Below, piece after piece: positions 11,656 to 38,409 of a stretch of 40,045 nucleotides of DNA. The notes under the pieces are model-generated. The model was not told the DNA's origin. It saw nothing but the letters and a program-made list of their open reading frames with translations, and did no database searches. Each line of letters begins with the position of its first letter. Position 1 is the stretch's first letter. This stretch comes from Bacilli bacterium (lineage in GTDB: Bacteria > Bacillota_I > Bacilli_A > RF39 > UBA660). The DNA lies in assembly GCA_045638445.1 (NCBI GenBank), contig JAZUBJ010000106.1:1-40045 (forward strand). Direction: 5' to 3'. The translations under genes and the position numbers were made by a program.

Positions 11656-11659
11656 TAAA

Positions 11660-18628: not shown

Positions 18629-19115
18629 ATGTTGGAAAGATATTAAAGGTTATGGAGGTAAATATAAAATATCTAATTATGGTGATGTTGTATCTCTTCC
18701 TAGGTTTAAACAAAATCATAGTAAATTACAAGAAGTTCCTATCAAAGTAATTAGTAAATATACAAATAAGAAAAATGGCTATGTATATGTTTATTTATGT
18801 AATGATGGGAAATACAAAAATATAAGACTTCATAAATTAGTTGCAGAAAATTTTATAGATAATCCAAATAACTATAAACAAATAAATCACAAAGATGGAA
18901 ATAAAAAAAATAATAGAGTTGATAACTTAGAATGGTGTAGTTGTTCTTACAATATTAAAGATATGTATAAAAGAAATGGGAAATATCAACAAGACAAGAA
19001 TATAATAAATGATTATTTAAAATTAAAATCTTGTAGAAAAGTTGCTAAAATTTACAATATGTCAAGTGAAAATATAAGATGTATTTTAAAGAGAAATAAT
19101 GTAGATAGAAGTTAG
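18621..19115 (+). CDS. HNH homing endonuclease (NUMOD4-like N-terminus, HNH_3 core, C-terminal HTH)
   Basis: WKDIKGYGGKYKISNYGDV motif, INHKDGNKKNNRVDNLEW HNH motif, and a C-terminal KVAKIYNMSSENIRCILKR helix-turn-helix. Confidence 0.8.
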   Translation: MIRCWKDIKGYGGKYKISNYGDVVSLPRFKQNHSKLQEVPIKVISKYTNKKNGYVYVYLCNDGKYKNIRLHKLVAENFIDNPNNYKQINHKDGNKKNNRVDNLEWCSCSYNIKDMYKRNGKYQQDKNIINDYLKLKSCRKVAKIYNMSSENIRCILKRNNVDRS

Positions 19116-19425: not shown

Positions 19426-19452
19426 TTAATAAAAGCGAAAGTGGGTGTAAAA

Positions 19453-19659
19453 ATGAATTTTAAAAAAGAAATTGAATGTTTTAATAAATTGTGCAAATAT
19501 CGTGTTAGGTGTAAATGTTCACATACTATTATTATGCCTAAATCCGATAGAGTAATTTGTTCTTATTGCAAAAAATGGATATATCGTACACCCGAAATAG
19601 AGTTTAAATATAAGTTGCAGGAAAAAATAAAAGAAATGGAAAAAGAAAAAAATGAATGA
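19453..19659 (+). CDS. Zinc-ribbon-like small protein
   Basis: Two Cys pairs (C-x-x-x-x-x-C-x-C ... C-x-x-C). The ATG at 19453 is preferred over the GTG at 19441. Confidence 0.5.
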   Translation: MNFKKEIECFNKLCKYRVRCKCSHTIIMPKSDRVICSYCKKWIYRTPEIEFKYKLQEKIKEMEKEKNE

Positions 19660-21949: not shown

Positions 21950-22111
21950 ATGGAAATAGAATGTTATAAGTTGCTGAAACAATATAAAAATAGGCTAACG
22001 ATACAACAATACAAGACCTTAAAAGGTCAAATAAACTCAGGGGATTATGATGGGTTCGTAAAAGGTTTATTTAAGATAGCAAAAAGAAAGGTATTAAAAA
22101 ATGAAAATTAA
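21950..22111 (+). CDS. Small hypothetical protein (53 aa)
   Basis: Not in the track. It fills the gap before the methyltransferase and overlaps that gene's start. Confidence 0.3.
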   Translation: MEIECYKLLKQYKNRLTIQQYKTLKGQINSGDYDGFVKGLFKIAKRKVLKNEN

Positions 22112-23303
22112 AGTATTAGAATTATTCGGCGGAATAGGGGCTTTTAGTAAAGCTCTTGAAAGATTAGGAATAGAATATGAAATTGCAGACTATGTAGAAA
22201 TAGATAAATATGCAGTAGCAAGTTACAATGCAATGCACAATACAAACTTCGAGCCACAAGACATATGCCAATGGAACAAAGATATAGAAGTAGATTTAAT
22301 AATGCATGGATCACCTTGTCAAGATTTTTCCCTAGCAGGAAAACAAGCGGGTGGAGATGAAGGAAGTGGAACTAGAAGTAGTTTAATGTATGAAACAATA
22401 AGAATAGTGGAAAAACTGAAGCCTAAATATGTGATATGGGAAAATGTGAAGAACTTATTAAGTAAGAAACATAGACATAACTTTGATGCTTATTTAGAAA
22501 CAATGGAACAGTTAGGTTATACAAATTATTATCAAGTATTAAATGCAAAAGACTATGGTATTCCACAAAATAGGGAAAGAGTGTTTACTATTAGCATAAG
22601 AAAAGACATTGATAAAGGCTATACATTCCTAGAACCACAAGAACTTAAATTAAAACTAAAAGATATGTTAGAAGATGAAGTTGATGAAAAGTATTATTTA
22701 AGTGATGAAATGGTTAATAAAATAAGAGCAAGTAACTTTATGCAAGAAAGAAAGAGAATACAAGAAAAAGAATATTGCGATACTCTGTTGGCAAGAGATT
22801 GGAAGGATCCTAAATGTATAGAAATTAAAGAAGCCACAAAACAAGGTTATAAAGAAGCATTTGAAGGTGATGGTGTAAACATATCCTCAAGAATGAAATA
22901 TCAAAGGGGTAATGTTCAAAAAGAAAGCATACAAACCATTACAACATCAGGTGGAAATGATAGAGGAGTGGTTTTAAAATCAAAATGTAAAAGGCTAGAA
23001 AGTTTAGTTGAGAAAACTGATTTTGAAGAAGGCAAAGTGTTAAATATGGATCTATATAATCAAACAACTAATGAAAATATAAGCCAATGCTTAACAGAAC
23101 CACATCATAATTCACAAAGGTTATTTGATGGATTAAGAATAAGAAAACTCACACCATGTGAGACTTGGTTGCTTATGGGTTTTGATAAATCAGATTATGA
23201 GAAAGCATCTAAAGTTAATTCAAATACTCAATTATATAAACAAGCAGGTAACTCAATTGTAGTAAATGTATTAGAAGCAATATTAACTAACTTGCTAAAA
23301 TAA
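22101..23303 (+). CDS. DNA (cytosine-5) methyltransferase
   Basis: Motif I ELFGGIGAF, motif IV GSPCQDFS, motif VI ENVKNL, motif VIII QNRERVF, motif IX RKLTPCETWLLMGF, motif X GNSIVVNV. Confidence 0.95.
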   Translation: MKIKVLELFGGIGAFSKALERLGIEYEIADYVEIDKYAVASYNAMHNTNFEPQDICQWNKDIEVDLIMHGSPCQDFSLAGKQAGGDEGSGTRSSLMYETIRIVEKLKPKYVIWENVKNLLSKKHRHNFDAYLETMEQLGYTNYYQVLNAKDYGIPQNRERVFTISIRKDIDKGYTFLEPQELKLKLKDMLEDEVDEKYYLSDEMVNKIRASNFMQERKRIQEKEYCDTLLARDWKDPKCIEIKEATKQGYKEAFEGDGVNISSRMKYQRGNVQKESIQTITTSGGNDRGVVLKSKCKRLESLVEKTDFEEGKVLNMDLYNQTTNENISQCLTEPHHNSQRLFDGLRIRKLTPCETWLLMGFDKSDYEKASKVNSNTQLYKQAGNSIVVNVLEAILTNLLK

Positions 23304-25218: not shown

Positions 25219-25650
25219 TTGGCAAAATTAACTGATTTGGAAAAGCAACAAATTATTGCTGATTATATTGAAACGCAAAATTATAGTGAAGTTGCTAAAA
25301 AATATAACAGAAGTGTTGAAACTATTAGAAATGTTGTTAAAGCTAACAAAGACGTTGGAAAAAAATTGAAACAAAAAAAAGAAGAAAACACTCAATCTAC
25401 AATAGAATATATGCAAACGCAACACGAAAGCAAAAAGAGAATCTTAGATAAAATATTAAAGGCAATAGAAGAAAAAGCAGATAATATTGATATGTTTACA
25501 AATATAAAAGATTTAGCAACTGCTTACGGAATTATTTTAGATAAAGAACTTAAATTTATGGAAATGCAACGTGGAAATGCTAATAACGAAGAATTAAACA
25601 AAGTTAAAGAGTTACTTACAAAGATAAGTGATGGTGCTAACAATGGGTAA
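25219..25650 (+). CDS. terS: Terminase small subunit
   Basis: 143 aa with N-terminal HTH (NYSEVAKKYNRSVETIRNVV) and a coiled-coil centre. TTG start sits 8 nt after the AAAGGAGA RBS, directly upstream of TerL. Confidence 0.6.
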   Translation: MAKLTDLEKQQIIADYIETQNYSEVAKKYNRSVETIRNVVKANKDVGKKLKQKKEENTQSTIEYMQTQHESKKRILDKILKAIEEKADNIDMFTNIKDLATAYGIILDKELKFMEMQRGNANNEELNKVKELLTKISDGANNG

Positions 25651-26917
25651 ATTGACATCTCCGAAACAAGATGAATTTATTAGGAATGCAACACATAGAT
25701 ACAATATAAAAGTAGGAGCTAGAAGATGTGGTAAAACCTATTTAGACAACTTATGGACTATACCAACACGAATATTAGAACGAAGTGGTAAAGATGGGTT
25801 GTATGTTATTCTAGGCGTATCTAAAGGCACGATAGAGCGAAATGTATTACAACCTTTAAGGCAGATTTATGGAAAGAATTTAGTTGGTACAATTAATTCA
25901 AACAACATAGCTAAGTTATTTAACGAAGAAGTTTATTGTCTTGGTGCTGAAAAAATAAGCCAAGTTTCTAAAATTCAGGGTACATCAATTAAATATTGTT
26001 ATGGTGATGAGGTTGCCAAGTGGAATCAGGAAGTATTTATTATGGTTCAAGGATCGTTAGATAAGCCTTATTCTATGTTTGATGGAGCATTAAACCCGGA
26101 AAATCAATCACATTGGTTGAAAAAAGATTTTCTTGATAAAGTTGAAGAAAAAGGGCTTGATGTTTACGTTCAACATTACACGATATTTGACAATCCTTTT
26201 TTAAGTAAAGAATTTGTTGATAACTTATGTAAAGAATACGAAGGAACAGTATTTTATGATAGATTGATACTTGGACTATGGAAAAATGCAGAAGGTATTA
26301 TATATAAACAATTTGCAGACAATCCAAGCGAATATATAAAAGAAAAAGCAATTGATGAACGTGGCAACCCAATTAACTTTATGATTATATCAATTGGGAT
26401 AGACTATGGAGCAACGCAAGGTGAAACTGAATTTAAAGCAACAGGAATAACACCTTATTTTAAACAAGTTTGGACTTTAGACGAGGAAAAGTTGAGTGGC
26501 TTACATTCACCAGAGCAAATGTATGAAAAGTTTGTAGAGTTTTATAGACGAGTTGTTGATAATTATGGTAAAGTTACCCATGCTTTCGGCGATTATGGTG
26601 CATTAGGTCAAGTTATTACTTATGGTTTAAATAGACACTTACAACAAAAAGGAATACCTTTACAAGTTCAGGATTGTATCAAGGGTAGAATCGTTGACAG
26701 AATCGAGTTAGATTGCCATTTATTTGGGCAAATGCGTAGGTTTATACTTCGCAAGTGTAAATACCTTATAGAAGCATATTCTCAGGCTCTGTGGGATGAT
26801 AAAAAGGAAGATGAAAGACTTGACGATGGAACAACACCGATAGATGATTTGGACGCATCGGAATATTCAATGTTTCCATTTTACGATAAACTTATGATGA
26901 ATATACAAGGGAGGTAG
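25628..26917 (+). CDS. terL: Terminase large subunit
   Basis: Walker A GARRCGKT and Walker B-like CYGDEVAKW, about 425 aa, upstream of the portal. The likely true start is the ATG at 25643. Confidence 0.85.
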   Translation: MMVLTMGKLTSPKQDEFIRNATHRYNIKVGARRCGKTYLDNLWTIPTRILERSGKDGLYVILGVSKGTIERNVLQPLRQIYGKNLVGTINSNNIAKLFNEEVYCLGAEKISQVSKIQGTSIKYCYGDEVAKWNQEVFIMVQGSLDKPYSMFDGALNPENQSHWLKKDFLDKVEEKGLDVYVQHYTIFDNPFLSKEFVDNLCKEYEGTVFYDRLILGLWKNAEGIIYKQFADNPSEYIKEKAIDERGNPINFMIISIGIDYGATQGETEFKATGITPYFKQVWTLDEEKLSGLHSPEQMYEKFVEFYRRVVDNYGKVTHAFGDYGALGQVITYGLNRHLQQKGIPLQVQDCIKGRIVDRIELDCHLFGQMRRFILRKCKYLIEAYSQALWDDKKEDERLDDGTTPIDDLDASEYSMFPFYDKLMMNIQGR

Positions 26918-26920
26918 TTT

Positions 26921-27127
26921 ATGAAATTATTTAATTTATTTAAAAAGAAAAATAAACAAACTACTTTTTGTTATTGCCCAGATTGTGGTAATGAATTAAT
27001 AAGTAGTAATAGTTTTATTAAAGATGAATATTATGTTTATTATAAATGTTCAAAATGCGGTAAAGAAACAAAATGGATTTTTGATACACCTGTACCTATT
27101 TTGATAAAAGATTTAAAGGAGGACTAG
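26921..27127 (+). CDS. Zinc-ribbon protein (68 aa)
   Basis: CPDCGNEL ... CSKCGKE (two CxxC pairs). Confidence 0.55.
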   Translation: MKLFNLFKKKNKQTTFCYCPDCGNELISSNSFIKDEYYVYYKCSKCGKETKWIFDTPVPILIKDLKED

Positions 27128-27128
27128 T

Positions 27129-28559
27129 ATGAAATTAGAAAAGTTTTTACAAGATAATTATAATTACAACCCAGATGTTAAAAATGTATTAGCAAGTTAT
27201 ATTGACCAATGGAAGAGTTGGTATCAGGGGAATGTAAAATCATTCCACAATTATTTTATTTACAATGGTAAAAAGAAAGTGCCACAACAAAGATATACAA
27301 TGAACATGGCAAAGGAAATTAGCGAAGATTGGTCAGATATTTTATGGAGTGAAAAATGCCAAGTATCAATGGCAGATGAAACTTCACAAGAACAATTTGA
27401 TGAGTTAGTAGAAGCACTAGATTTATATGTGTTAATTAACCAATCAATAGAAAAATCAGGTGGTTTAGGAACTGAATCAGCCGTAGTGAGTGTATATGAT
27501 ATTATTGAAAATGAAGAAGGAATGACTTTGGATGTATCAAGTGCTAAAACCAGAGTTGATTTGGTAGATGTTGACTGGATATTCCCATTAAGCTGGACTA
27601 ACAAGGGCATAACTGAATGTGCGTTTGGTAGCGTTGAATATATTAAAGGTAAAAAACATATAGTATTATCAGTTCATCAATTAAATGATGCAGGAAATTA
27701 TGTTATTAAAAATCATTTATTTATGGAAACAAATGGAAATTTAACTGAAATTGTAAATCGTGATAATACAATAAATGAATTTGATACAAAATCAGATATT
27801 AAATGGTTTGCAATATTTAAGCCATTATTAACAAATAATTTATTTAATAATTCACCTTTTGGGATTCCACATTATGCAAATGCGATTGATAACTTAAAAG
27901 CAGTTGATATTTCATTTGATGCTTTAAAGAACGAAGTAAATGATGGCAGAAAAAGAACGTTTGTTAGAGCGGAATTGTTTAATTATGATGAAGGGCAACA
28001 AAAATTGGTATTTGATCCAAACGATACAACAGTTTATCAATTGCCACAAGGTGCGACTAAAGATGATTTGATTCAGAGTGAAAGTGATAGTTTAAGAACT
28101 GCGCAACAAATTGAAACATTGAACACTAACTTAAATATTTTAGGAAGTAAAGTTGGATTTGGTGAAAATCATTATCATTATGACGGAACTAATTTATCAA
28201 CTGCAACTGCTGTTGTAAGTTCAAATAGTAAGTTATTCAGAAGAAAGAAAAAACTTGAAATTGGGTACGAAAGTGCTATTTATGATTTGGTAAAGGCTGT
28301 TTGCTATGCTTCAAGTGAGTTCGGTCAATATAACATAAATACAGATGACATGGTTGTTCAATTTGACGATAGTATAATCGAAGATAAAGAAGCAGAAAGC
28401 AATAGAGCTATGAGAGAAGTAAGCGCAGGATTATTGAGCAAGGTTGATTATAGAGTTCAAGTGTTTGGCGAAACACCAGAAATAGCACAACAAAAAATTG
28501 CTGAAATAGAAGAAAACAATCCAACAGTGCAAGATTTATTGGGAACAAATAACGAATAG
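27129..28559 (+). CDS. Portal protein
   Basis: 476 aa, immediately downstream of the terminase. Size and position are typical of SPP1/A118-type portals. Confidence 0.8.
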   Translation: MKLEKFLQDNYNYNPDVKNVLASYIDQWKSWYQGNVKSFHNYFIYNGKKKVPQQRYTMNMAKEISEDWSDILWSEKCQVSMADETSQEQFDELVEALDLYVLINQSIEKSGGLGTESAVVSVYDIIENEEGMTLDVSSAKTRVDLVDVDWIFPLSWTNKGITECAFGSVEYIKGKKHIVLSVHQLNDAGNYVIKNHLFMETNGNLTEIVNRDNTINEFDTKSDIKWFAIFKPLLTNNLFNNSPFGIPHYANAIDNLKAVDISFDALKNEVNDGRKRTFVRAELFNYDEGQQKLVFDPNDTTVYQLPQGATKDDLIQSESDSLRTAQQIETLNTNLNILGSKVGFGENHYHYDGTNLSTATAVVSSNSKLFRRKKKLEIGYESAIYDLVKAVCYASSEFGQYNINTDDMVVQFDDSIIEDKEAESNRAMREVSAGLLSKVDYRVQVFGETPEIAQQKIAEIEENNPTVQDLLGTNNE

Positions 28560-28573
28560 GTAGGTGATACCTA

Positions 28574-29806
28574 GTGTTAGACGAAAGACTAATTGATTTA
28601 TTAGTAGAACGCCTTGTAGATAGAATAGAACAAGGCAACACTTATGTATTAGAACAAATAGGCAAGAATATCAAGAAAGTTGGTACTCTTACGCCTAGTA
28701 AGGCACAACAACTTGTAAATGTTCTTAAATATGGTGGTAATTATGATAATATTGTTAAAAAACTTGCGAAGGTTACCGACTTAAATGTCGCCGACATCTA
28801 TGAAATATTTGAAGAAGTTGCTAAGAATGATTATCAATTTGCTAAGCAGTTTTATGATTACAAAGGTGTTAAATACATTCCTTATGAAGAAAATTTTGCT
28901 TTACAAAGACAAGTTCAAGCGTTGGCAAGAATAACTGCAAATGAGTATGTTAATCTTAGTAATACACTTGCTTTCACAACACGAGATAAGTTCGGTAAGG
29001 TTGTTTATACTGACCTTTCTAGAACGTATCAAGATGTTATTGATAAGGCTGTTTTAAGCGTAGCACAAGGCAAAACTACATTTGATGAAGAAATGTATAA
29101 GAGTATCAAAGAACTTGCTTCTAGTGGCATAAAAACGGTTGATTATGCAAGTGGTAGAGCAGTTAGATTAGATTCAAGTGTTAGACAACATATGAAAGGT
29201 GCATTGAGAAACTTACACAATGAAACACAAGCAGTATTCGGTGAAGAATTTGGCTCTGATGGCGTAGAGATTAGTGTTCATATTAATCCAGCACCTGACC
29301 ACGCCGAAGTTCAAGGTAAACAATTTAGTAAAGAAGAATTTGTGAAGTTTCAAAATGACGATGATGCTTATGATTATAAAGGTAAGTTCTTTCCAGCAGT
29401 ATCAGAAGAAACTGGACACGATAGACGTTCTATAAGCGAACATAACTGTTATCATTACACTTTTGATATTGTGTTGGGTGTTAGTAAGCCAAATTATAGT
29501 AATGAAGAATTACAAAAGATAATTGATGATAATAACAAAGGTTTTGAATTAGATGGGAAGCACTATACTAATTATGAAGGCACTCAATTACAAAGAAAGC
29601 TAGAAACTGAAATTAGAAGGCAAAAAGATATTCAGATTATGGCGAAAGCAAGTGATAACAAAGAATTAGTGCAAGAAAGCCAACAAAAGATAACACAACT
29701 AACAAAGAAATATAAACAATTGAGTGACATTAGTGGTTTACCAACTAAAATGGAACGAATGCGTGTTAGTGGTTATCGCCGAGTTAATGTTGCAAAAATG
29801 AAATAG
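28574..29806 (+). CDS. Minor head protein (SPP1 gp7 / Mu F-like)
   Basis: 410 aa directly after the portal, GTG start with GGTAGGTGA RBS. Confidence 0.65.
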   Translation: MLDERLIDLLVERLVDRIEQGNTYVLEQIGKNIKKVGTLTPSKAQQLVNVLKYGGNYDNIVKKLAKVTDLNVADIYEIFEEVAKNDYQFAKQFYDYKGVKYIPYEENFALQRQVQALARITANEYVNLSNTLAFTTRDKFGKVVYTDLSRTYQDVIDKAVLSVAQGKTTFDEEMYKSIKELASSGIKTVDYASGRAVRLDSSVRQHMKGALRNLHNETQAVFGEEFGSDGVEISVHINPAPDHAEVQGKQFSKEEFVKFQNDDDAYDYKGKFFPAVSEETGHDRRSISEHNCYHYTFDIVLGVSKPNYSNEELQKIIDDNNKGFELDGKHYTNYEGTQLQRKLETEIRRQKDIQIMAKASDNKELVQESQQKITQLTKKYKQLSDISGLPTKMERMRVSGYRRVNVAKMK

Positions 29807-29975: not shown

Positions 29976-30005
29976 TTGACAAATTGTATAAATGTTGTGT
30001 ATAAT
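29976..30005 (+). promoter_or_regulatory. Sigma-A type promoter (TTGACA-18-TATAAT)
   Basis: Consensus hexamers immediately after the terminator, driving the RHH operon. Confidence 0.6.
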
Positions 30006-30025
30006 ATGTGTAGTGAGGTGATAAA

Positions 30026-30160
30026 ATGGTAAAAGTTAGAAAAAATATAAGTATTGATGAAACAATATGGAAGAAACTTCAAGAACTTGCAAAGAAAGAA
30101 AACAGAAGTGCAAGTAATTTTATAGAATATTTAATAGAAAAATGGGAAAAGGGTGAATAG
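30026..30160 (+). CDS. Ribbon-helix-helix protein (44 aa)
   Basis: Not in the track. RBS GTGAGGTGA. ISIDETIWKKLQELAKKENRSASNFIEYLI fits the RHH pattern. Confidence 0.6.
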   Translation: MVKVRKNISIDETIWKKLQELAKKENRSASNFIEYLIEKWEKGE

Positions 30161-31855: not shown

Positions 31856-31880
31856 AGAGGGAGGTGAGAAAGGTGTTTAA
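31833..31880 (+). CDS. Leader mini-ORF (15 aa, MTSFLFFLEGGEKGV)
   Basis: GGGAG RBS 7 nt upstream. The ORF runs through the 3' arm and T run of the leader hairpin and overlaps the start of the main gene. Confidence 0.3.
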   Translation: MTSFLFFLEGGEKGV

Positions 31881-33066
31881 AGATTATAACAAGTATTTAA
31901 GTGCAAGTTTAAAAGTGTATATTTTTGTATTAGTAATAGTGTTTATAATGAAGTTGGTGGGGTTAGATTATTTTGGATTAGATGTAAACAATTCGATTTT
32001 TACCAAAGTTTTTACATTTTTAGCTAAATATAAAATCGATTATGTTTTACAAATATTATGTTTATATTTAAATTTTTATTTGTTAAAGAGCATAATATTT
32101 AAAGATTGCAAATTTGATTTTGAAACAATATTAATTCCAACGATAATTAACATTGGTACATACTTTTTACTTAAATATGACTTACAAGAGTTATATTCGA
32201 TGTTTAATATTTTAGTGTTGTTTTTATATTTTGTTATCAAAAAAGTTAAAATTAAAAGAATTTTAAAGGTTTTTATTATTAATATTGTCCTTCAATTTAT
32301 TAGTAGTGTTATTAGAAACTATGATATCAATAACTATATAACTTTGATTAATTTAATGATGAATATAGATTATTATATAATGCTAATTATTTGGTATAAA
32401 TTAGAAAAACAAGGAGGTGTTAAAAAATGGGAGAATGGCCAGGAAGTTTATTCTTATTCGCTAAAGAAGATAAACTTGGGGAAATTGCTGAAAAGATTGC
32501 AAGAAAACTTGCATAAATTTAAGCAAAAACAAAAAGTTGAAAAATTAACAATTATTATTTATTTGTTTTTAAGTTTGATATGGAATACATTTACAGTAAT
32601 TTTTGTTCTTTTTGTAGCATCATTAAATGACACATTTATTGAATGTATATTCATAATAACTTCATTCTGGTTATCCAAAAGAGCATTTGGTAAGGCATTT
32701 CATCTATCTAGTATGATCCAATGTTTTATTGTTTCAAATATTAGTTATTATATACTAAATAGAATTACAACACCTTTAGGAATTAGTATATTAATTCCAA
32801 TAATGTTAGGAGTAGGTTTATCGTATGTTACATCAAAATTGGTGAAGAAAACATACAAGCCACTTTATAAAGGTATGTCAAAGGAACTATTTGAAGAAAC
32901 AATATTAAAGGTTGTGGACAAAGATAGCCAGAAGTATAAGATATGTTACGACTTTTATATTAATAAGAAAAGTGATTTATCACTATCTTTGAAATATAAT
33001 TATTCAGTCGCAGGTATTAGAAAAATTAAGGATAGAATAAATGATAAAATTAAAAGACTTGATTAA
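31864..33066 (+). CDS. Polytopic membrane protein (about 400 aa) with an AgrB-like His/Cys motif in its C-terminal half
   Basis: About 10 hydrophobic segments. WLSKRAFGKAFHLSSMIQCFIVS reproduces the R-x6-H-x6-C-x3-S spacing of AgrB (S. aureus RRHAHGAHAPSSFWCYVES). The probable start is the GTG at 31873. Confidence 0.45.
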   Translation: MRKVFKDYNKYLSASLKVYIFVLVIVFIMKLVGLDYFGLDVNNSIFTKVFTFLAKYKIDYVLQILCLYLNFYLLKSIIFKDCKFDFETILIPTIINIGTYFLLKYDLQELYSMFNILVLFLYFVIKKVKIKRILKVFIINIVLQFISSVIRNYDINNYITLINLMMNIDYYIMLIIWYKLEKQGGVKKWENGQEVYSYSLKKINLGKLLKRLQENLHKFKQKQKVEKLTIIIYLFLSLIWNTFTVIFVLFVASLNDTFIECIFIITSFWLSKRAFGKAFHLSSMIQCFIVSNISYYILNRITTPLGISILIPIMLGVGLSYVTSKLVKKTYKPLYKGMSKELFEETILKVVDKDSQKYKICYDFYINKKSDLSLSLKYNYSVAGIRKIKDRINDKIKRLD

Positions 33067-33079: not shown

Positions 33080-33122
33080 GTATTATTTTGTATCGTTTTT
33101 AAAATCTATAATTAAGTTAGAA

Positions 33123-33171
33123 AGGAGATGCAAACAATGAAAAATAAAACCCTGCTGATGTTTGCTCTCCT
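33123..33171 (+). promoter_or_regulatory. RBS-sequestering hairpin in the leader of the 33198 operon
   Basis: 13 bp with one bulge: aggagatgcaaaca pairs with tgtttgctctcct. The left arm contains the AGGAG of the mini-ORF. Confidence 0.4.
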
Positions 33172-33184
33172 TTTGTTTATTTAA
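33137..33184 (+). CDS. Mini-ORF (15 aa, MKNKTLLMFALLLFI)
   Basis: AGGAGA RBS 9 nt upstream. Its stop codon overlaps the RBS of the next gene. Confidence 0.3.
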   Translation: MKNKTLLMFALLLFI

Positions 33185-33197
33185 GGAGATGAAATAA

Positions 33198-33635
33198 ATG
33201 TATAATAACCCATATTATAACCCAAATCAAAGGTATCAACCGATGGGAATGCCAAGTCAACCCATGACAACACAACCTAGTTATATAACACCAATAACAC
33301 CGCCTATAAGTCAACCAAATTTATTAGGTAAGGTAGTGGATAGTATTGATGTAGTAAAAGCTATGGACATTCCTTTAGATGGCAGTATAAGTTATTTCCC
33401 ACTAACAGATGGAACTGCAATTGTTAGTAAGCAGTTACAAACAGACGGAACTAGTAAAACTGTTATTTACAAACCAATAAAAGAAGATACTAACGATAAT
33501 AACAAATTCGTGACTTTTGAAGATATGCAAAAAGAACTTGCAAAAATAGATTTATCTGATTTAGATGATTTGAAAGATGAATTAAAGGAAATTAAAAAGC
33601 AATTGAAAACAATAAAAAAACCGAAGGAGGATTAA
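33198..33635 (+). CDS. Protein with a P/Q/N/Y-rich low-complexity N-terminus (145 aa)
   Basis: MYNNPYYNPNQRYQPMGMPSQPMTTQPSYITPITPPISQP, then a globular part and a charged coiled-coil tail. Confidence 0.6.
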   Translation: MYNNPYYNPNQRYQPMGMPSQPMTTQPSYITPITPPISQPNLLGKVVDSIDVVKAMDIPLDGSISYFPLTDGTAIVSKQLQTDGTSKTVIYKPIKEDTNDNNKFVTFEDMQKELAKIDLSDLDDLKDELKEIKKQLKTIKKPKED

Positions 33636-33636
33636 A

Positions 33637-33876
33637 ATGAATAATCCGTTGCAAATGATTAAAATGATGATGAGCAACACCAAAAATCCACAAGAAATAG
33701 CTATGAATATGATAGGTAATAATAATAATCCAGTTATACAAAACCTCGTCAAAATGGCTCAAAATGGTGACTATAAAGGTGTAGAAAATGTTGCTAGAAA
33801 TATGTTTAAAGAACAAGGTAGAGATTTTGATGCAGAATTGAAAGATTTACAAAGTTTTATAGGTAATTTTAAATAA
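33637..33876 (+). CDS. Small Met/Asn-rich helical protein (79 aa)
   Basis: Coupled ORF (TAAAATG junction). No motif recognised. Confidence 0.6.
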   Translation: MNNPLQMIKMMMSNTKNPQEIAMNMIGNNNNPVIQNLVKMAQNGDYKGVENVARNMFKEQGRDFDAELKDLQSFIGNFK

Positions 33877-33882
33877 GAATAA

Positions 33883-33927
33883 AAAGTCCGGTTATAAGTG
33901 TAAAACGTCCGGACAGAACCGGACTTT
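33883..33927 (+). promoter_or_regulatory. GC-rich three-element hairpin with mutually exclusive pairings
   Basis: aaagtccggtt (A) and aaccggacttt (C) form a perfect 11-bp stem. The loop contains the palindrome gtccggac (B), which can pair with either A or C. Confidence 0.5.
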
Positions 33928-33951
33928 CTATTATAAATTAAAAAAGGAGGA

Positions 33952-34827
33952 ATGAAAATGGAAGGAATGTTAAGCCCTGCTGATGTAGCTGTCCTATCTG
34001 GAAATGCTGGTGGAAATAGACAAGGTGGACAAGGTGGTTTCGGAGACGGATATGGTGCATGGTGGATCATCATCTTAATAGTATTATTAGGATGGGGTAG
34101 AAACGGCTTCGGTGGAAACCAAGGAGGAAACTCTGATGGTGGACAAGGAGCAACATATTACTATGGAGGAGGTTTTGGTATGCCAAATATCTATGGTAAG
34201 TTAGACGGAATTAGTTATGGTATAGCAGATTCTACTTTCGCTTTAAACAATTCAATTACAAATGGATTTGCTGGTGTTCAACAAACATTATGTCAAGGAT
34301 TTAGTGGTGTAAATAATGCTATAACAGTTAATGGCTATGAAACAAGAAGTGCTGTTACTGATTTAGGTTACAGACTACAAGATTGTTGCTGTCAAACACA
34401 AAGAGCAATTGATAAATGTTGCTGTGATACTTTAAGAAGTATTGACAATGTAAGATTTGAAAACGCTCAAAATACTTGTGCTTTAACAAATGTTATAAAT
34501 AGCACTACAAGAGATATTTTAGAAAGCAATAACAATAATACAAGGGCAATTTTAGATTTCTTAACTAAAGATAAAATTGATACTTTACAAGCAGAAAATC
34601 AAGCTCTTAGATTCCAAGCTTCACAAACTGCTCAAAATGCTTTCATTACTGCTAACCAAGACGCTCAAACTGCTGAGTTAATCAGAAGATTAGGAGCAGA
34701 TTGCCCACAACCTGCTTACCTTGTAAATGGACCTACACCAATTAGTTTCCCAACTAATGGATGTGGACAAGTTCAGTTTTCAAACAATGGTTGCGGATGC
34801 GGATGCAATAATGGATATAATTTTTAA
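33952..34827 (+). CDS. Gly-rich, membrane-anchored, Cys-rich protein with CCC repeats (291 aa)
   Basis: Gly/Gln/Asn-rich N-terminus flanking the TM segment AWWIIILIVLLGW. Tandem DCCCQTQRAID / KCCCDTLRSID, a Gln-rich coiled coil, and C-terminal GCGCGCNNGYNF. 13 Cys in total. Confidence 0.7.
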   Translation: MKMEGMLSPADVAVLSGNAGGNRQGGQGGFGDGYGAWWIIILIVLLGWGRNGFGGNQGGNSDGGQGATYYYGGGFGMPNIYGKLDGISYGIADSTFALNNSITNGFAGVQQTLCQGFSGVNNAITVNGYETRSAVTDLGYRLQDCCCQTQRAIDKCCCDTLRSIDNVRFENAQNTCALTNVINSTTRDILESNNNNTRAILDFLTKDKIDTLQAENQALRFQASQTAQNAFITANQDAQTAELIRRLGADCPQPAYLVNGPTPISFPTNGCGQVQFSNNGCGCGCNNGYNF

Positions 34828-34880
34828 TAAGTGAGATGTCTAACTGACAACCCTGATAACAGGGACTTGCTAATTTAACG

Positions 34881-34914
34881 GAGGTATAGCAAGTCTATAC
34901 CTCTTTATTTATTT
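34881..34914 (+). terminator. Rho-independent terminator
   Basis: gaggtata / tatacctc 8-bp stem with a 7-nt loop and a T-rich tail. A second small hairpin ccctg-ataa-caggg lies at 34851-34864. Confidence 0.65.
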
Positions 34915-34934
34915 AAGAAAGGAATGATAATTAA

Positions 34935-35393
34935 ATGATTCAAAGTGTATTAGAACAATTTACAATTCTTACTAGTAATACATCTGCTATTAATTTTACT
35001 CAAGATGATGTAAGAAGTAGAAAAGCTAATTGTTGCGGATGGTTACAACATAACGAAGGTTCACCAATTTATAAAATATTAGAAGGTGGATTATATGAAG
35101 TTTCTTTTAATGCCAATGTTTCAAGTGCTACTGCTGGAGTAGTTGCTTTAGGTTTATACCAAGATGGTGTGTTAATACCCGGAACAACTGTTATAACTAC
35201 AATAGCAACTGCTGGTGATTTTATGAATGTATCTTTTGATAAATTAATACAAGTATGTTGTAGAGGAGATGCTAATTTAACTATAGCATCAGTACCTAGT
35301 GTTTTAACAGGAACAACTGCACCGGGAACTCCAACAGATACAGAAATTCCTATAATTCAAAATGCTAACTTCTCAATAATTAAGAAATCGTAG
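34935..35393 (+). CDS. C1q/TNF-like (BclA C-terminal domain-like) beta-sandwich protein with two vicinal Cys pairs
   Basis: 152 aa. The pattern GGLYEVSFNANVSSATAGVVALGLYQDGVLIPGT ... NLTIASV ... NANFSIIK resembles BclA-C/C1q jelly-roll domains. Confidence 0.45.
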   Translation: MIQSVLEQFTILTSNTSAINFTQDDVRSRKANCCGWLQHNEGSPIYKILEGGLYEVSFNANVSSATAGVVALGLYQDGVLIPGTTVITTIATAGDFMNVSFDKLIQVCCRGDANLTIASVPSVLTGTTAPGTPTDTEIPIIQNANFSIIKKS

Positions 35394-35402
35394 GTGTGAA
35401 TT

Positions 35403-35960
35403 ATGGAAGAAGAAAAAAAAGATAAGGAAATATTAGAAAAGTTAAAAGAAGAAACTGACAAATCTATGAAACGTGTTTTGGAACAAGGAGTACAAACAAA
35501 CAATGTTGATTTTCTTTATAAAATGATAGATATAAAGAAAGATATAGCAGAAATTGAAAAGGAGGAAGAAGATATGATGTATAGAGCAGGAGGTTCATAC
35601 AGAGAAGGTGGTTCAGGTCGTGGCTCTTATGGTGAATACGGAGAAGGTTCTTACGGAAGAAGAGGAGTACCCGGAAGTGGTAGAGGAAGATACAGCGAAG
35701 GCGGTTCTTATGGACGTAGAGGTGTAAAAGGAACTGGTAGAGGTCGTTATCGTGGAGAAGAAATGATGGACGAAATGGCTTATCACTATGGAAATTACTC
35801 TGAAAGTGGACAATATGGAGCTGAAGGAGAATCAATGGAAGCTCTAAGCAACTTAATGGAAAGTGCATACGAGTATTTTAAGGAATTAAAAGAAAATGCT
35901 AATTCACCAGAAGAAATTAAAATGATGGAACACTATTTTAAAAAAATGGGCGAAATGTAA
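35403..35960 (+). CDS. RGG/GSY-repeat protein flanked by acidic helical domains (185 aa)
   Basis: The central region GGSYREGGSGRGSYGEYGEGSYGRRGVPGSGRGRYSEGGSYGRRGVKGTGRGRYRGEE includes a 19-aa tandem duplication. Confidence 0.6.
   Translation: MEEEKKDKEILEKLKEETDKSMKRVLEQGVQTNNVDFLYKMIDIKKDIAEIEKEEEDMMYRAGGSYREGGSGRGSYGEYGEGSYGRRGVPGSGRGRYSEGGSYGRRGVKGTGRGRYRGEEMMDEMAYHYGNYSESGQYGAEGESMEALSNLMESAYEYFKELKENANSPEEIKMMEHYFKKMGEM
35646..35759 (+). repeat. 2 x 57-nt in-frame tandem repeat encoding GSYGRRGV(P/K)G(S/T)GRGRY...
   Basis: Units at 35646-35702 and 35703-35759. The Arg codons differ between units (AGA vs CGT), so the repeat is conserved mainly at the protein level. Confidence 0.8.
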
Positions 35961-36316
35961 TGTATAAATTCTATAATGCAAATGCTCGTGGTAAATTCCA
36001 CAATGATTGCACAGTCAGGGCAATTTCACTAGCCGAAGGTAAATCGTGGGATGATACTTATAGAGAATTAAGCATAATAGCACAACGTAATGGAATAATA
36101 CTTGACGATGTTAATTTTATCGAGCCATTATTAGATAGTAGGTATGATAGAATATGCTATAAAGGAAAATATGTGGGCGAGTTCGCAGAAGAACACCCAG
36201 AGGGAACGTACCTTATAACGATGAACGGGCATATTACTTGTTGTATTGATGGGACGATATACGATACATTTGATTGTAGAAACAGAGAAATGTGGTGTGC
36301 TTGGGAGGTTTATTAA
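35960..36316 (+). CDS. Small Cys-His protein, possible papain-fold peptidase/amidase (118 aa)
   Basis: An N-terminal NDCTVRAISLA (candidate nucleophile Cys) and a C-terminal NGHITCCIDGTIYDTFD (candidate His/Asp) have the order and spacing of small papain-like enzymes. Confidence 0.35.
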   Translation: MYKFYNANARGKFHNDCTVRAISLAEGKSWDDTYRELSIIAQRNGIILDDVNFIEPLLDSRYDRICYKGKYVGEFAEEHPEGTYLITMNGHITCCIDGTIYDTFDCRNREMWCAWEVY

Positions 36317-36327
36317 CCTCTCTTAAC

Positions 36328-36402
36328 GGGAGTATAGCCAAGTGGATAAGGCAAGTGACTGCAACTCACTTATCGTAGGTTCAAATCCTATTACTCCCTC
36401 CA
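36328..36402 (+). tRNA. tRNA-Cys(GCA): tRNA-Cys (anticodon GCA) with encoded CCA
   Basis: Manual cloverleaf: 7-bp acceptor gggagta/tactccc, D loop with GG, anticodon stem agtga/tcact with loop CTGCAAC, and T arm gtagg-TTCAAAT-cctat. The U73 discriminator is the CysRS identity element, and a 3' CCA is encoded. Confidence 0.85.
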
Positions 36403-36455
36403 ATTTTGATTTTTATAAAATATATGATATAATTTTCTAAGAGAGGATTGATTAT

Positions 36456-36779
36456 ATGAAGAATTATAAAGTTACTGCAATAATAAATTTCACATATACT
36501 GCTTTTGATGAAGTTGTATTTATAGAAAAAGAAAAATATAATTACCATTGGATCTATAAAGGTGATGTTTTCTTATGTGATAAAGACCAATATGAATATT
36601 TAAGTGGAAATAATAAAAAGAAATTAGTTACGATTAAATTAGATGGAATATTGGTTGAAGAAGAACAACAAGAAGTTGTAATTGACCAATCAAATGAAAT
36701 TGATGTAGAAATAAATAAAGAAGATTTAGAAGTTAAACCTAAAAAGAAAAGAGCAACTAAAAAATCAAGCAAGGAATAA
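36456..36779 (+). CDS. Hypothetical protein with a Lys-rich tail (107 aa)
   Basis: ORF with GAGAGGA RBS, flanked by the tRNA and the tRNA-like element. Confidence 0.55.
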   Translation: MKNYKVTAIINFTYTAFDEVVFIEKEKYNYHWIYKGDVFLCDKDQYEYLSGNNKKKLVTIKLDGILVEEEQQEVVIDQSNEIDVEINKEDLEVKPKKKRATKKSSKE

Positions 36780-36792
36780 CTTGCTTTTACTT

Positions 36793-36866
36793 AGGGATAA
36801 GGCGAAAGTTGCCGACAAATCTCCAAAATTTGTGTCGAGTGGGAGCGTTACCTACTATCCCTGCCA
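36793..36866 (+). tRNA. tRNA-like cloverleaf, possibly a degenerate or non-canonical tRNA-Trp (anticodon CCA)
   Basis: 7-bp acceptor agggata/tatccct, G73 and a 3' CCA; anticodon stem caaat/atttg with loop CTCCAAA; T stem gtggg/cctac. However, the T loop is AGCGTTA rather than TTCRANN, the D loop is only 5 nt with no GG, and the spacer lengths are irregular. Confidence 0.4.
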
Positions 36867-36887
36867 TTAGTAAATAAAAAGTGCTTT

Positions 36888-36915
36888 TTGCATTTTTTTT
36901 ATTTTGTGTTATAAT
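36888..36915 (+). promoter_or_regulatory. Promoter of the scaffold/capsid operon (TTGCAT-16-TGtTATAAT)
   Basis: Good -35 and an extended -10, located 85 nt upstream of the scaffold start. Confidence 0.55.
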
Positions 36916-36923
36916 ATATTTAT

Positions 36924-36941
36924 AAAGTTCAACAGAACTTT
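36924..36941 (+). promoter_or_regulatory. Inverted repeat AAAGTTC-N4-GAACTTT just downstream of the -10 (operator or 5' UTR hairpin)
   Basis: Perfect 7-bp arms with a 4-nt spacer, starting 9 nt after TATAAT. Confidence 0.35.
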
Positions 36942-36999
36942 CAATATTGATTCACTCGAGTTCGTGGCTCGTAAAATTAACGATAGGAGGAGATATTAA

Positions 37000-37476
37000 A
37001 TGAGAGAATTTTTAAAGAGTTTAGAATTAGAAAAAGAAACTATTGATGTTATTATGAAAGAACATGGAAAAATTTTAACTGAAAACAAAGGTGAAATACA
37101 AGGTTTGAAAGATAAAATTAAAGAACATGAAGAAACAATAACAAAATTAAATGGTACTATTGAAGATAATAATAAATCTTTAGAAAGTCTACAAACACTA
37201 ACAAACGAGAATAAAGACTTAAAAGCAGAAATTCAAATGAATGGAAGCAATGTTAAAAAAGAATTTAGTAAATTTGTTAGAAGCGAAGTTATGGCAAATG
37301 TAAATGATGAAACAGATTTTACAACAGCCCTTGAAACTTACAAAAAAGATAATCCACAATACTTTGGAGATGTAGTAGTTAAAAAAGTGCAATCATCACC
37401 AAGTTTAAACGGTGGAGAACCACAACCACAAACAACAAATAATATTATGAATGATATTATTCGTGGTACAAAATAA
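37000..37476 (+). CDS. Capsid scaffolding protein (GP20-like coiled coil)
   Basis: 158 aa, highly charged coiled coil, directly upstream of the major capsid gene, with a strong AGGAGGAG RBS. Confidence 0.75.
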   Translation: MREFLKSLELEKETIDVIMKEHGKILTENKGEIQGLKDKIKEHEETITKLNGTIEDNNKSLESLQTLTNENKDLKAEIQMNGSNVKKEFSKFVRSEVMANVNDETDFTTALETYKKDNPQYFGDVVVKKVQSSPSLNGGEPQPQTTNNIMNDIIRGTK

Positions 37477-37500
37477 TTAAATAAAAGGAGAGAAGAAAAA

Positions 37501-38409
37501 ATGGCACAAATCACAAGAACTGATGTAGATGCTCTAATTGAAACTCAAGTAGCTAATGAGATATTTGAGGGAGTAACTACTGAATCAAAAGCTTTATCAA
37601 TGTTTAGAAGATTACCAAACATGACATCTGATAAAACTAAATTAAGAGTTTTAGACTCACTACCAATTGCTTATTTCGTTGATGAATCAAATAACAACGG
37701 AAGAAAAAATCTTACAAAGATGGCTTGGGCAAACAAGTACATCAATGCAGCTGAATTAGCAGTTATCGTTCCTATTAAGGAAAACGTATTAAACGATGCT
37801 TCTATTGACATCTGGGCTGAAGTTAGACCTAGAATTGTTGAAGCATTTGCTAAGAAAATCGACAACGCTGTATTCAATGGTGTTGACAAACCTGCTGATT
37901 GGAGAAAAGGTTTAATACCATCAATCGTTGAAGCTGGTAAAGAAGTTCCTGAAAGTGGAAAATTATATTCTGATATCAACGATGTTATGACTGAAGTTGA
38001 AGAAAGCGGATATAATGTTACTGCTCTATTAGGTGGAGTTGGACTTAAAGGAAAATTCCGTATGATGACTGACGAAACTGGTCAACCATTAAATACAACT
38101 GAAATTGGTTCTTTAAGAAGAGAATACCTAGACAATGGTGCTTGGGATAAAGAATTATCAACATTAATCGCTGGTGATTTCAATCAAGCAGTTTACTCTA
38201 TAAGACAAGACGTTACTTATAAAGTATTAACAGAAGCTGTTATCCAAGACCCATCAAGTGGAGAAATCTTATATAACTTAGCACAAGATGACATGGTTGC
38301 ATTACGTGTTGTTATGAGATTAGGTTGGGAAATTCCAAACCCAGTTAACGCATTAGACGAAACTGAAACAAGATTCCCATTCGCATCTTTAAAACCAACA
38401 AATGTATAA
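37501..38409 (+). CDS. Major capsid protein (HK97-fold type)
   Basis: 302 aa following the scaffold, with a strong RBS and highly expressed-looking codon usage. The position is typical. Confidence 0.85.
   Translation: MAQITRTDVDALIETQVANEIFEGVTTESKALSMFRRLPNMTSDKTKLRVLDSLPIAYFVDESNNNGRKNLTKMAWANKYINAAELAVIVPIKENVLNDASIDIWAEVRPRIVEAFAKKIDNAVFNGVDKPADWRKGLIPSIVEAGKEVPESGKLYSDINDVMTEVEESGYNVTALLGGVGLKGKFRMMTDETGQPLNTTEIGSLRREYLDNGAWDKELSTLIAGDFNQAVYSIRQDVTYKVLTEAVIQDPSSGEILYNLAQDDMVALRVVMRLGWEIPNPVNALDETETRFPFASLKPTNV

Follow-up and report, generated by a model that had tools for sequence, protein, structure and literature searches.

A conserved phage gene module around a putative membrane-anchored rod with cysteine triplets, tentatively assigned a role late in infection

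Several described systems resemble in part the gene module considered here, which occupies positions 33198–36316 on the + strand of contig JAZUBJ010000106.1 from a Bacilli bacterium (assembly GCA_045638445.1). The whole stretch that was analysed, referred to below as the window, is a tailed-phage genome or contig of 40,045 bp with 29% GC and with every gene on the + strand. The central gene encodes a protein with two Cys-Cys-Cys triplets in a long predicted helix (the CCC protein, or CCC rod). It is preceded by genes for proteins of 145 and 79 residues (o145 and o79) and followed by genes for a 152-residue jelly-roll “head” protein, a 185-residue protein rich in Arg, Gly and Tyr (RGY-rich) and a putative cysteine peptidase or amidase of 118 residues. 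The described systems that come closest are the BclA-type proteins and appendages of endospores, the spanins, hendecad coiled coils and, for the 118-aa protein, the peptidases of clan CA.

BclA, F-BclA and L-BclA share with the 152-aa family the domain itself, the lack of a secretion signal, vicinal cysteines and a stalk-like neighbouring gene (PMC12357932, PMC11362473). In the phage module, however, the domain stands alone, and there is no GXY stalk, exosporium leader, docking hook or ExsF/BxpB, ExsY or Ena partner. The candidate stalk would be a separate, membrane-anchored hendecad helix that is phage-borne, and the head slot is filled by an unrelated protein in most viral loci and in about one third of the genome loci. 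The S- and L-type endospore appendages (ENA) come from small gene clusters whose products assemble by themselves in the cytoplasm and are held together by disulfides between subunits, some of them formed by vicinal cysteines (PMC11362473). The design principle of these appendages and of ExsY/CotY is shared by the module, and the CxxxCxxC motif of c5, an alternative head family, recalls the N-terminal connectors of Ena, although no sequence relationship to ENA, ExsY or CotY was detected. The module thus has the logic of ENA and exosporium assemblies and one of their domains, and beyond that domain every feature of a spore system that was tested for membership was found to be lacking.

The i-spanins, such as lambda Rz and P2 LysB, possess an N-proximal anchor, a long coiled coil, functionally placed cysteines and a Pro-rich end. 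The CCC rod is similar in outline to these proteins and to XhlA, its gene is frequently located in lysis cassettes, and its predicted length of ~25 nm is on the scale of the envelope. Spanins require a lipoprotein partner and a diderm host, whereas the module has no lipoprotein (o-spanin-like) partner, none of its partners has a signal peptide, and the CCC protein is commonest among phages whose hosts are monoderm Firmicutes and thus lack an outer membrane. The CCC rod further differs from spanins in its hendecad repeat, its CCC motif and its four to five soluble partners. Hendecad coiled coils, such as the tetrabrachion stalk, and designed metallo-coiled coils with Cys layers are comparators for the rod itself, which is like them in its 11/3 periodicity over ~170 residues and in the placement of Cys at the core, although a PDB search finds no relative. 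The 118-aa protein is like clan CA peptidases, deubiquitinases (DUBs) and amidases in the order of its Cys (helix N-terminus), His (strand) and Asp residues, but the members of its family, phrog_3754, come from phages with many different hosts and are nearly all uncharacterised. To our knowledge, there is no described system with a membrane-anchored hendecad rod bearing a core Cys triplet. The core families (CCC, o145, o79 and RGY-rich) have no characterised relative, which would place the module outside the known kinds as far as sequence comparison can tell. Searches of the literature on phage BclA-like proteins, on virion proteomics of the Clostridium perfringens phages that carry the CCC protein and on the crAss “spike” gene turned up nothing on the CCC family.

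The case for a module is made by gene order, which was compared at 80 loci from IMG/VR and 80 from species-representative genomes, each encoding a CCC homologue. Neighbouring proteins were clustered, family hidden Markov models (HMMs) were built, and co-occurrence was counted where the flank sufficed. Upstream of the CCC gene an o145-type gene (o145 or its relative c33) is found in 71/75 viral and 68/69 genome loci. Directly upstream o79 is present in 66/75 and 22/69, respectively, the second count possibly reflecting a small and fast-evolving protein. A head protein is encoded immediately downstream in every locus that could be scored (76/76 viral, 62/62 genome), the RGY-rich protein downstream in 74/76 and 36/62, and a peptidase-like protein within 4 kb in 70/71 and 52/57. 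The head slot is occupied by a Bcl-type protein in 18 viral and 42 genome loci and by a c5-type protein in 58 and 20. The peptidase slot is of the CH118 type in 15 viral and 48 genome loci and of the HExxH-containing c18 type in 55 and 4. Neither Bcl and c5 (hhalign probability 1%) nor CH118 and c18 (also compared by hhalign) are related to each other. The c5 family is a Cys-rich beta protein with eight cysteines and an invariant N-terminal CxxxCxxC, and HExxH is present in 20/20 members of c18. Head types and peptidase types combine freely across loci, and the alternation of unrelated families in one slot suggests non-orthologous replacement within one function.

The cluster thus belongs to a conserved six-gene phage module, whose status as a system is an assignment from comparative genomics. 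A first-pass annotation of the window had proposed that three Cys-containing genes form a functionally linked cluster, and synteny in the two sets of loci bears out the linkage. The three ORFs (open reading frames) it named are all present on the + strand (33952–34827, 291 aa; 34935–35393, 152 aa; 35960–36316, 118 aa), and a codon-by-codon check found each motif it quoted in its place. The extent of the cluster had been drawn too narrowly, since the 185-aa gene at 35403–35960, within the same interval, and the upstream partners at 33198–33876 had been omitted. A further family, c19 (~280 aa, up to 18 Cys), was considered as a module member and rejected, as it represents an HNH/AP2-type homing endonuclease. 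Genes for homing endonucleases of the HNH/NUMOD/AP2 type are frequent in and around the module in relatives, also between o145, o79 and the CCC gene (for instance at 8523–9861 of L164, 7875–8714 of L036 and 7102–7680 of L172; in the window at 18621–19115 (+), outside the module), and they inflate the apparent count of Cys-rich genes.

One could regard the genes as unrelated and merely adjacent, and their Cys motifs as compositional accidents. The region from 29.9 to 36.8 kb is indeed a mosaic insert, which also contains unrelated genes for a ribbon-helix-helix (RHH) protein and an AgrB-like protein. The near-universal co-occurrence in ~160 loci from two collections, the invariance of the Cys motifs in homologues and the Cys statistics of the window all stand against such an accident. 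With the other + strand ORFs of the window as background (0.97% Cys), the probability of at least 13 Cys in 291 aa is 7e-6 and that of at least 6 in 118 aa is 1e-3. The 152-aa protein is not enriched (P = 0.06), both of its pairs being vicinal. Seven of the nine CC dipeptides in the set of 58 ORFs fall in the three proteins, with 1.5 expected overall, and two CCC triplets are observed in that set against 0.017 expected. An accidental origin, to which next to no credence was given, is refuted by the synteny counts.

The CCC protein is encoded by the 291-codon ORF at 33952–34827 (+) and matches phrog_16490 (E value 2e-53). A Shine-Dalgarno sequence, GGAGG, at 33946–33950 lies 1 nt from the ATG at 33952 and 7 nt from the ATG at 33958, CCC homologues begin with MEGMLSP, and the exact 291-aa sequence is not found in the protein collection; the start is therefore probably at 33958, giving a protein of 289 aa. 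The family is large, with at least 7982 clusters at 90% identity in a collection of 5.8 billion proteins and at least 284 relatives in IMG/VR. It has no counterpart in Pfam or NCBIfam, where the Pfam matches at E <= 1 are only weak coiled-coil noise. No meaningful match was obtained on comparing the alignment with PDB sequences, and none on comparing the low-confidence model with the PDB by Foldseek.

An AlphaFold2 (AF2) model of the monomer, made from a 68-sequence alignment, predicts a short N-terminal helix in the conserved motif MEGMLSPADVAVLSGN, followed by the anchor, a disordered Gly-rich linker, one continuous helix of residues 80–248 and a disordered Pro/Cys tail. The anchor is the hydrophobic segment AWWIIILIVLLGW (residues 36–48, 34057–34095), a putative single membrane anchor by Kyte-Doolittle analysis; no other stretch of the six module proteins reaches a 15-residue mean of 2.0. 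It lies between Gly-rich stretches, its Trp/Gly flanks are conserved, and the single N-terminal hydrophobic anchor of the first-pass annotation is in this respect real. The N-terminal tail is net acidic and an Arg follows the anchor, from which an N-out/C-in orientation is weakly predicted. The earlier comparison of the Gly-rich N-terminus with YjcZ is not backed by any Pfam or NCBIfam match at E <= 1, and the likeness is one of composition only. The Gly-rich linker after the anchor is encoded at 34096–34188.

The helical rod of ~170 residues (34189–34701) shows an 11-residue hydrophobic repeat. In the same alignment, the hydrophobicity spectrum of residues 80–250 peaks at 3.65, with a power of 108 at 3.67 against 6.8 at 3.5. 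The Gln-rich coiled coil that had been described from the sequence is thus retained as a long predicted helix, but its periodicity is 11/3, that of a hendecad and not that of a heptad. When the sequence is written in rows of 11, LQDCCCQTQRA is followed by IDKCCCDTLRS. Position a then holds Leu/Ile and positions d, e and f hold Cys, so that two Cys of each triplet would occupy core positions of a hendecad bundle. The triplets lie in the motif LQDCCCQTQRAIDKCCCDTLRS, the first at residues 145–147 (34384–34392) and the second at residues 156–158 (34417–34425), exactly one hendecad further on. They are nearly invariant in two family alignments. At least one triplet is present in 54/54 distinct phage homologues, and in the 11 that have two the spacing is always 11 residues.

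The tail (CPQPAYLVNGPTPISFPTNGCGQVQFSNNGCGCGCNNGYNF; 34702–34824) has the pattern CPQPAYLV...NGCGQ...GCGCGC; each of the 54 homologues from Firmicutes phages has CPxPAY and, within its last 45 residues, three to eight Cys. A likeness of the Pro-rich tail to an exosporium leader (PTPISFPTNG against PPIYIPTG) was considered and rejected as resemblance only, as there was no match to TIGR03720. Kinship of the 291-aa protein with the spore proteins CotY, ExsY, CotZ or CdeC is not supported, as no such match was obtained in Pfam and NCBIfam at E <= 1 or in the PDB profile search. Two terminator-like hairpins found by a consensus scan, one with a T-run between o79 and the CCC gene (33907–33924) and one with a 10-bp stem in the gap before the 152-aa gene (34880–34904), bracket the CCC gene in an otherwise co-directional row. 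By attenuation they may fix the proportions in which the module proteins are made.

The 152-aa protein (34935–35393, +) is, by sequence, supported as a stand-alone member of the BclA_C/C1q/TNF-like jelly-roll group. The window protein itself reaches only 22 bits against Pfam BclA_C (PF18573, E value 1.5e-4), where the gathering cut-off is 38. Among its relatives, PF18573 is matched at E <= 0.01 by 30/32 close and 44/62 diverse sequences, with a best E value of 1.2e-13, and two close relatives carry a precomputed PF18573 match. A profile of the 62 diverse relatives finds 9h38, the C-terminal domain of F-BclA, with an E value of 1.4e-5 (query residues 3–133 against chain residues 16–144), the BclA structures 2z5w, 2r6q, 3twi and 1wck with E values of 1.6e-4 to 7.5e-4 (up to 1e-3 over all BclA matches) and, more weakly, ExsF, BxpB, the C1q domain of collagen X and TNF ligands. 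The structure 9h38 is that of the C-terminal head of F-BclA, the tip fibrillum of the F-type endospore appendages of Bacillus thuringiensis (PMC12357932). Only this diverse profile reached PDB relatives; searches of PDB sequences with the 152-aa protein alone, with the close alignment and with a mixed alignment gave nothing meaningful. The matches of the diverse family to BclA_C and 9h38 support the jelly-roll fold, and the C1q/BclA-C-like fold that had been suggested from the sequence pattern therefore holds at the level of the family.

Two CC pairs are encoded at 35031–35036 and 35256–35261. All four residues (C33, C34, C108 and C109) are invariant in 32 close homologues, and the wider family keeps only the second pair, the first being specific to the subfamily of the window. 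The family comprises 2040 clusters at 90% identity and 343 at 50%, and the 150 of the latter that were listed are all short stand-alone proteins of 45–196 aa. Among 120 listed homologues, almost all 90% clusters are singletons, though they are 80–95% identical to the query, and the variable positions are scattered and not gathered in one loop, so that diversification is unusually fine-grained for a protein of 152 aa. There are no GXY collagen repeats in the sequence, the exosporium leader (TIGR03720) has no NCBIfam match at E <= 1 in either the 152-aa or the 291-aa protein, and the F-ENA docking hook (M-P-psi-psi-x-P-psi; PMC12357932) is absent from the N-terminus MIQSVLEQFT. No Pfam match to DUF3992 or DUF4183 is listed for the window proteins or for c5.

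The 118-aa protein (35960–36316, +) is a putative small cysteine peptidase or amidase that belongs to phrog_3754 (E value 6e-25), a family of 890 homologous clusters without a Pfam or NCBIfam match. In 19 diverse and 54 close homologues the residues D16-C17, R20, G90-H91, D102, D105 and W115 are invariant, and the 19 share the pattern DC..R, GH, YD.(F/W)D and W. The candidate catalytic residues are encoded at 36008–36010 (Cys17), 36230–36232 (His91) and 36263–36265 (Asp102). The motif NDC...GH...CC...D that had been noted is present in all its parts, including Asp102/105, but the CC after the His is not conserved. The AF2 model is of the alpha/beta type, with a mean pLDDT (predicted local distance difference test score) of 85.9 and a pTM (predicted template modelling score) of 0.79; Cys17 starts helix 16–26 and His91 starts strand 91–96.

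Foldseek comparison of this model with the PDB gave a best E value of 0.66 and TM-scores of at most 0.38, the faint matches being to ubiquitin-specific protease (USP)-like and tegument-like DUBs, Tae4 and the foot-and-mouth disease virus (FMDV) Lpro. The BFVD comparison gave 20 matches at E <= 1e-3, which apart from few exceptions are uncharacterised phage proteins from many host groups. One match is labelled as a thioesterase-domain protein, and a Josephin assignment has a probability of 0.6 (E value 0.087). The papain fold that had been proposed for the protein is in keeping with the invariant Cys, His and Asp and with the Cys at a helix N-terminus, but no significant structural or profile match was found; “cysteine peptidase or amidase-like” is a reasonable working label.

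The remaining partners are low-complexity or small proteins. The 145-aa o145 (33198–33635, +; phrog_21718, E value 2e-11) has an N-terminus rich in Gln, Pro, Tyr and Asn, a conserved beta-rich core (LLGKVVDSIDVVKAMDIPLDGSISYFPLTDG...) and a C-terminal coiled coil. It is linked to its distant relative c33 by an hhalign probability of 93.6% and has no relative in Pfam or the PDB. The 79-aa o79 (33637–33876, +) is rich in Met, Asn and Gln, is probably helical judging from its sequence and belongs to no Pfam or NCBIfam family. The RGY-rich protein (35403–35960, +; phrog_28802, E value 8e-12) has Glu/Lys-rich ends, presumed helical, around a centre (35577–35777) with 22 Gly, 12 Arg, 8 Tyr and 7 Ser among 67 residues, a composition from which disorder is presumed. 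No signal peptide or membrane segment was found in any partner of the CCC protein. NCBIfam gave nothing above noise for all module proteins, PDB sequence searches with c5 and o145 gave nothing meaningful, with no Ena structure found for c5, and PADLOC gave no match for 10 proteins at E <= 0.01.

Among isolated phages the CCC protein is carried by C. perfringens phages, including CPD1, and by the Butyrivibrio phage Ceridwen, which has all the module families except the o79 type. Butyrivibrio fibrisolvens is a non-spore-forming species. Only lytic growth of Ceridwen was observed on this host (PMC7372960). A search with more distant members finds homologues in at least 15 crAss-like phages (Steigviridae and Suoliviridae), in the Bacteroides uniformis phage C3_41T2LP and in viruses assigned to Methanomassiliicoccales, one record of which annotates its protein as phrog_16490. 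An HMM built from Firmicutes phages only scores nine of these crAss-like, Bacteroides and archaeal-virus homologues with E values of 2.6e-38 to 5.5e-15, and the window protein is 26–29% identical to that of cr1_1 over ~260 residues. The CCC triplet is kept in 9/9 and the long hydrophobic run with W/G flanks in 7/9, and the tail Cys are absent in 3/9. The archaeal-virus homologue has two triplets 11 residues apart. The presence of the triplet in all homologues makes it a universal feature of the rod and shows that the family is not tied to sporulating hosts.

In crAss-like phages the CCC gene likewise stands among genes for small proteins: one is R/Y/D-rich, one is a beta protein (~140 aa), one combines beta structure with a coiled coil, and in some genomes there is one with HExxH. 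When they were compared with the partner families of Firmicutes phages by hhalign, only the HExxH protein was linked, with a probability of 70%, so that the likeness of the partners between phyla counts as analogy. All identified carriers of the CCC protein come from anaerobic gut or rumen samples. L119, a 557-kb scaffold labelled Prevotella that contains a CCC-module locus, was not used as host evidence because of its 31% GC, as it is probably an artefact of binning or scaffolding. Among the contigs of metagenome-assembled genomes, several of ~40 kb that bear the label Bacteroidaceae or Gastranaerophilaceae resemble complete phage genomes.

The one clue to the function of the module is its position. 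Holin, LysB-like or endolysin genes lie within ~2.5 kb of the CCC gene in six of seven crAss-like genomes examined. The order in cr1_1 is pholin, LysB-like, R/Y-rich, CCC, beta, beta/coiled-coil, one more gene and a lysin of the L,D-transpeptidase type. In cr52_1, cr53_1 and cr109_1 a holin and a LysB-like gene are directly upstream of the CCC gene (the holin of cr52_1 being annotated only as hypothetical), in cr116_1 a holin and an L,D-carboxypeptidase are 1.2–2.2 kb upstream, and in cr273_1 an endolysin is 2.2 kb downstream. A lysin gene is found 1.7 kb upstream in Ceridwen, and in 17 Firmicutes-type loci a peptidoglycan hydrolase gene detected with few BLAST probes is 1.4–3 kb away. The large L035 group has a gene for an XhlA-like tail-anchored protein 1.2 kb upstream, for which the Pfam XhlA match is weak (E value 0.05).

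The CCC homologue of cr109_1 (L171 4483–5466) and its neighbours contain in-frame stops under translation table 11, consistent with recoding. Such recoding is typical of late structural and lysis genes of crAss-like phages (PMC10136315). Just upstream of the holin/CCC region, several crAss-like phages and the Methanomassiliicoccales virus vir215 have a reverse transcriptase gene and a tail-protein gene (L172 454–2985, L173 1–2846, L175 855–4476 and L169 552–3686). The arrangement resembles a diversity-generating retroelement, the tail gene being annotated as Mtd-like in crAss records; there is no reverse transcriptase in the window.

It is tentatively proposed, with a probability of about one in three, that the module encodes a rod-head complex which is anchored in the membrane, depends on thiols and acts late in infection, around lysis or release. 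The rod would consist of the anchor, the Gly-rich linker, a helix of ~170 residues (~25 nm) and the Pro/Cys tail, and would oligomerise through its hendecad core, with the CCC layers of neighbouring chains facing each other and joined by disulfides or bound metal. The head, a fold that is trimeric in known members, the two low-complexity proteins and the small helical protein would assemble on the rod late in infection, and the peptidase-like protein would mature one of the components. As the partners carry no export signals, the soluble ones would meet the rod at the cytoplasmic membrane. The complex would act late there, most plausibly in lysis or release, the cytoplasmic membrane being the only barrier common to all these hosts. 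In a bolder version, which is improbable, the module would be an unrecognised class of viral membrane machine of anaerobic guts, common to viruses of Gram-positive bacteria, Gram-negative bacteria and methanogenic archaea. The stacked Cys of an oligomeric hendecad bundle would then, as a metal/redox centre or as reversible interchain disulfides, gate a late step (lysis, release or exposure of the head protein, for example) by redox or oxygen state and independently of wall type.

A number of observations weigh against a role around lysis or release. In the window the holin and M23 lysin genes (11350–12493) lie 21 kb from the module, which sits between the minor capsid and scaffold genes; the window is in this an exception to the nearness of lysis genes in many relatives. 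Elsewhere the location of the module varies, as it may accompany head genes, close an early/replication operon (L164) or follow lysis genes. The flanks of lysis cassettes are usual landing sites of morons, so the synteny of the module with lysis genes may not be functional, and the crAss cassettes already hold a candidate i-spanin, the LysB-like protein. Across host phyla only the CCC protein is detectably conserved, and weakly the HExxH protein, the other partners being alike in composition and position. The hydrophobic segment is short (12–16 residues), and the AF2 model of the rod reaches a pLDDT of 76–85 only at residues 170–245, with a pTM of 0.22. The type of rod tail does not co-vary with the type of head, and a Rosetta-stone search among the module families found no rod-head fusions.

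The main rival is a role in the virion, where rod and head would form a capsid or tail fibre or decoration, with a coiled-coil stalk and a C1q-like knob, or would be internal or ejection proteins that on infection insert into the host membrane by their hydrophobic segment. This is unlikely, though it draws on genome position: the window, Dulem virus 35 and L005 have the module among genes of head morphogenesis, the L035 group has it behind those for the major capsid protein and connector, and cr116_1 has it near capsid genes. BclA_C/C1q domains are distal knobs of fibres (PMC12357932), and the swappable head slot and highly diversified 152-aa family follow a pattern seen in receptor-binding parts. 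Depositors have labelled crAss homologues “spike protein/glycoprotein” or “viral fiber”, but these labels probably reflect coiled-coil matches. The position of the module is, moreover, not fixed: in L164 it closes an early/replication operon and is convergent with the tail and lysis genes, and in CPD1 and Ceridwen it follows the lysis genes. A membrane-type hydrophobic segment with a Gly-rich linker would be unusual in a fibre, and sigma-70-like promoters and terminator-like hairpins of its own mark the region. The module is missing in many close relatives, and the phage with the nearest capsid, Acutalibacter phage Fontainebleau, is not among the CCC matches; such patchy presence among close relatives argues for an accessory role. 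Another suggestion is that the module is a moron cassette for superinfection exclusion or another host-takeover or defence system at the membrane. The anchored protein, the mobile and variably placed cassette interspersed with homing endonucleases, the promoter-like and terminator-like signals of its own and the diversified head protein would suit this, but no module protein matches PADLOC, six co-conserved genes including disordered and peptidase-like proteins exceed the needs of known systems, and the module is present in apparently virulent phages, which makes the suggestion improbable.

The idea that the stacked Cys triplets ligate a metal or an Fe-S-type cluster, making the rod a metal/redox-cofactor device, is equally improbable, and it could coexist with the proposed late rod-head complex. 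The triplet is the only Cys feature kept in every homologue, as tail Cys can be lost; the triplets occupy hendecad core positions and repeat exactly one hendecad apart, and all identified carriers are from anaerobic samples of gut or rumen. However, no known metal-binding family is matched, the module has no proteins resembling cofactor-assembly or redox enzymes, and the apparent restriction to anaerobes may stem from the databases and patterns searched. The first-pass annotation had pointed to spore coat or exosporium layers, and on this reading the proteins would alter the spore or cell surface of the host, as a form of lysogenic conversion in Firmicutes. The BclA-CTD-type (C-terminal domain) fold, vicinal cysteines as in the Cys14-Cys15 bridges of L-ENA, whose cluster also joins a CotZ/Y-type anchor and a BclA_C protein (PMC11362473), the lack of secretion signals, as in proteins assembled in the mother cell, and the many carriers among Clostridia agree with it. 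As a general role it is contradicted by the occurrence of the CCC protein in crAss-like, Bacteroides and predicted Methanomassiliicoccales viruses, whose hosts do not sporulate, and by that of most of the module in Ceridwen, for which only a lytic cycle was observed. The window also has no integrase-sized gene and all its genes are co-oriented, and no collagen region, exosporium leader or match to CotY/ExsY, DUF3992 or DUF4183 was found, leaving a spore role very improbable.

The rest of the window has the gene order of a tailed phage. Tail genes, inferred from gene order and sizes and without Pfam match, occupy ~2–11 kb and are followed by Holin_LLH (11350–11655), the M23 peptidase (11660–12493), replication genes including DnaB and a RecA-like ATPase, a C5 methylase (22101–23303), the terminase (25628–26917), an SPP1-type portal (27129–28559), minor capsid protein 2 (28574–29806), the scaffold (37000–37476) and the major capsid protein (37501–38409), all on the + strand. 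The nearest capsid relatives are those of phages of gut Clostridia (Acutalibacter, Clostridioides and Faecalibacterium), with 42–49% identity. No integrase-sized gene was seen on either strand, and a search for near-identical DNA with 33100–37500 found no match in phage records.

The minor capsid and scaffold genes are separated by an insert of ~7 kb, which has the three-gene cluster at its right end and, by a consensus scan, its own sigma-70-like promoters and terminator-like hairpins. A perfect sigma-70 consensus (TTGACA-18-TATAAT) is found at 29976–30005 (+), right behind the minor capsid gene, and next comes an ORF for a 44-aa protein resembling a ribbon-helix-helix (CopG-type) protein, promoter and ORF together spanning 29976–30160 (+). 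The insert may on this evidence have transcription of its own, separate from that of the head operon. The gene that immediately precedes the module, at 31864–33066 (+), encodes a 400-aa polytopic membrane protein with an AgrB-type domain (PF04647, E value 6.7e-9), and AgrB-like proteins (c28/c29; PF04647, E value 9e-6) precede o145 in nine other loci. The membership of this protein in the module is uncertain, and no gene for an AgrD-like peptide was seen. Three more small Cys-rich ORFs, at 26921–27127, 19441–19659 and 14777–15007 (+), with five to six Cys in 68–76 aa, are unrelated to the module; the first, between terminase and portal, shows CxxC...CxxC as in a zinc ribbon.

Among the unannotated families of the gut virome, that of the CCC protein is one of the commoner. 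Its members are labelled “hypothetical”, “spike glycoprotein” or “viral fiber”, and they are also encoded by crAss-like phages, which are the most abundant viruses of the human gut. Several PHROG families without function gain a name and testable parts, and the tempting annotation as “spore coat” is corrected. Three culturable phage-host pairs, those of CPD1, Ceridwen and C3_41T2LP, carry the CCC protein and partner genes and make the module experimentally tractable. If the rod bears thiols or metal along its helix, it would represent a new natural protein architecture, and should the CCC protein take part in lysis or release, the lysis pathway would gain a component that serves monoderm, diderm and archaeal hosts alike.

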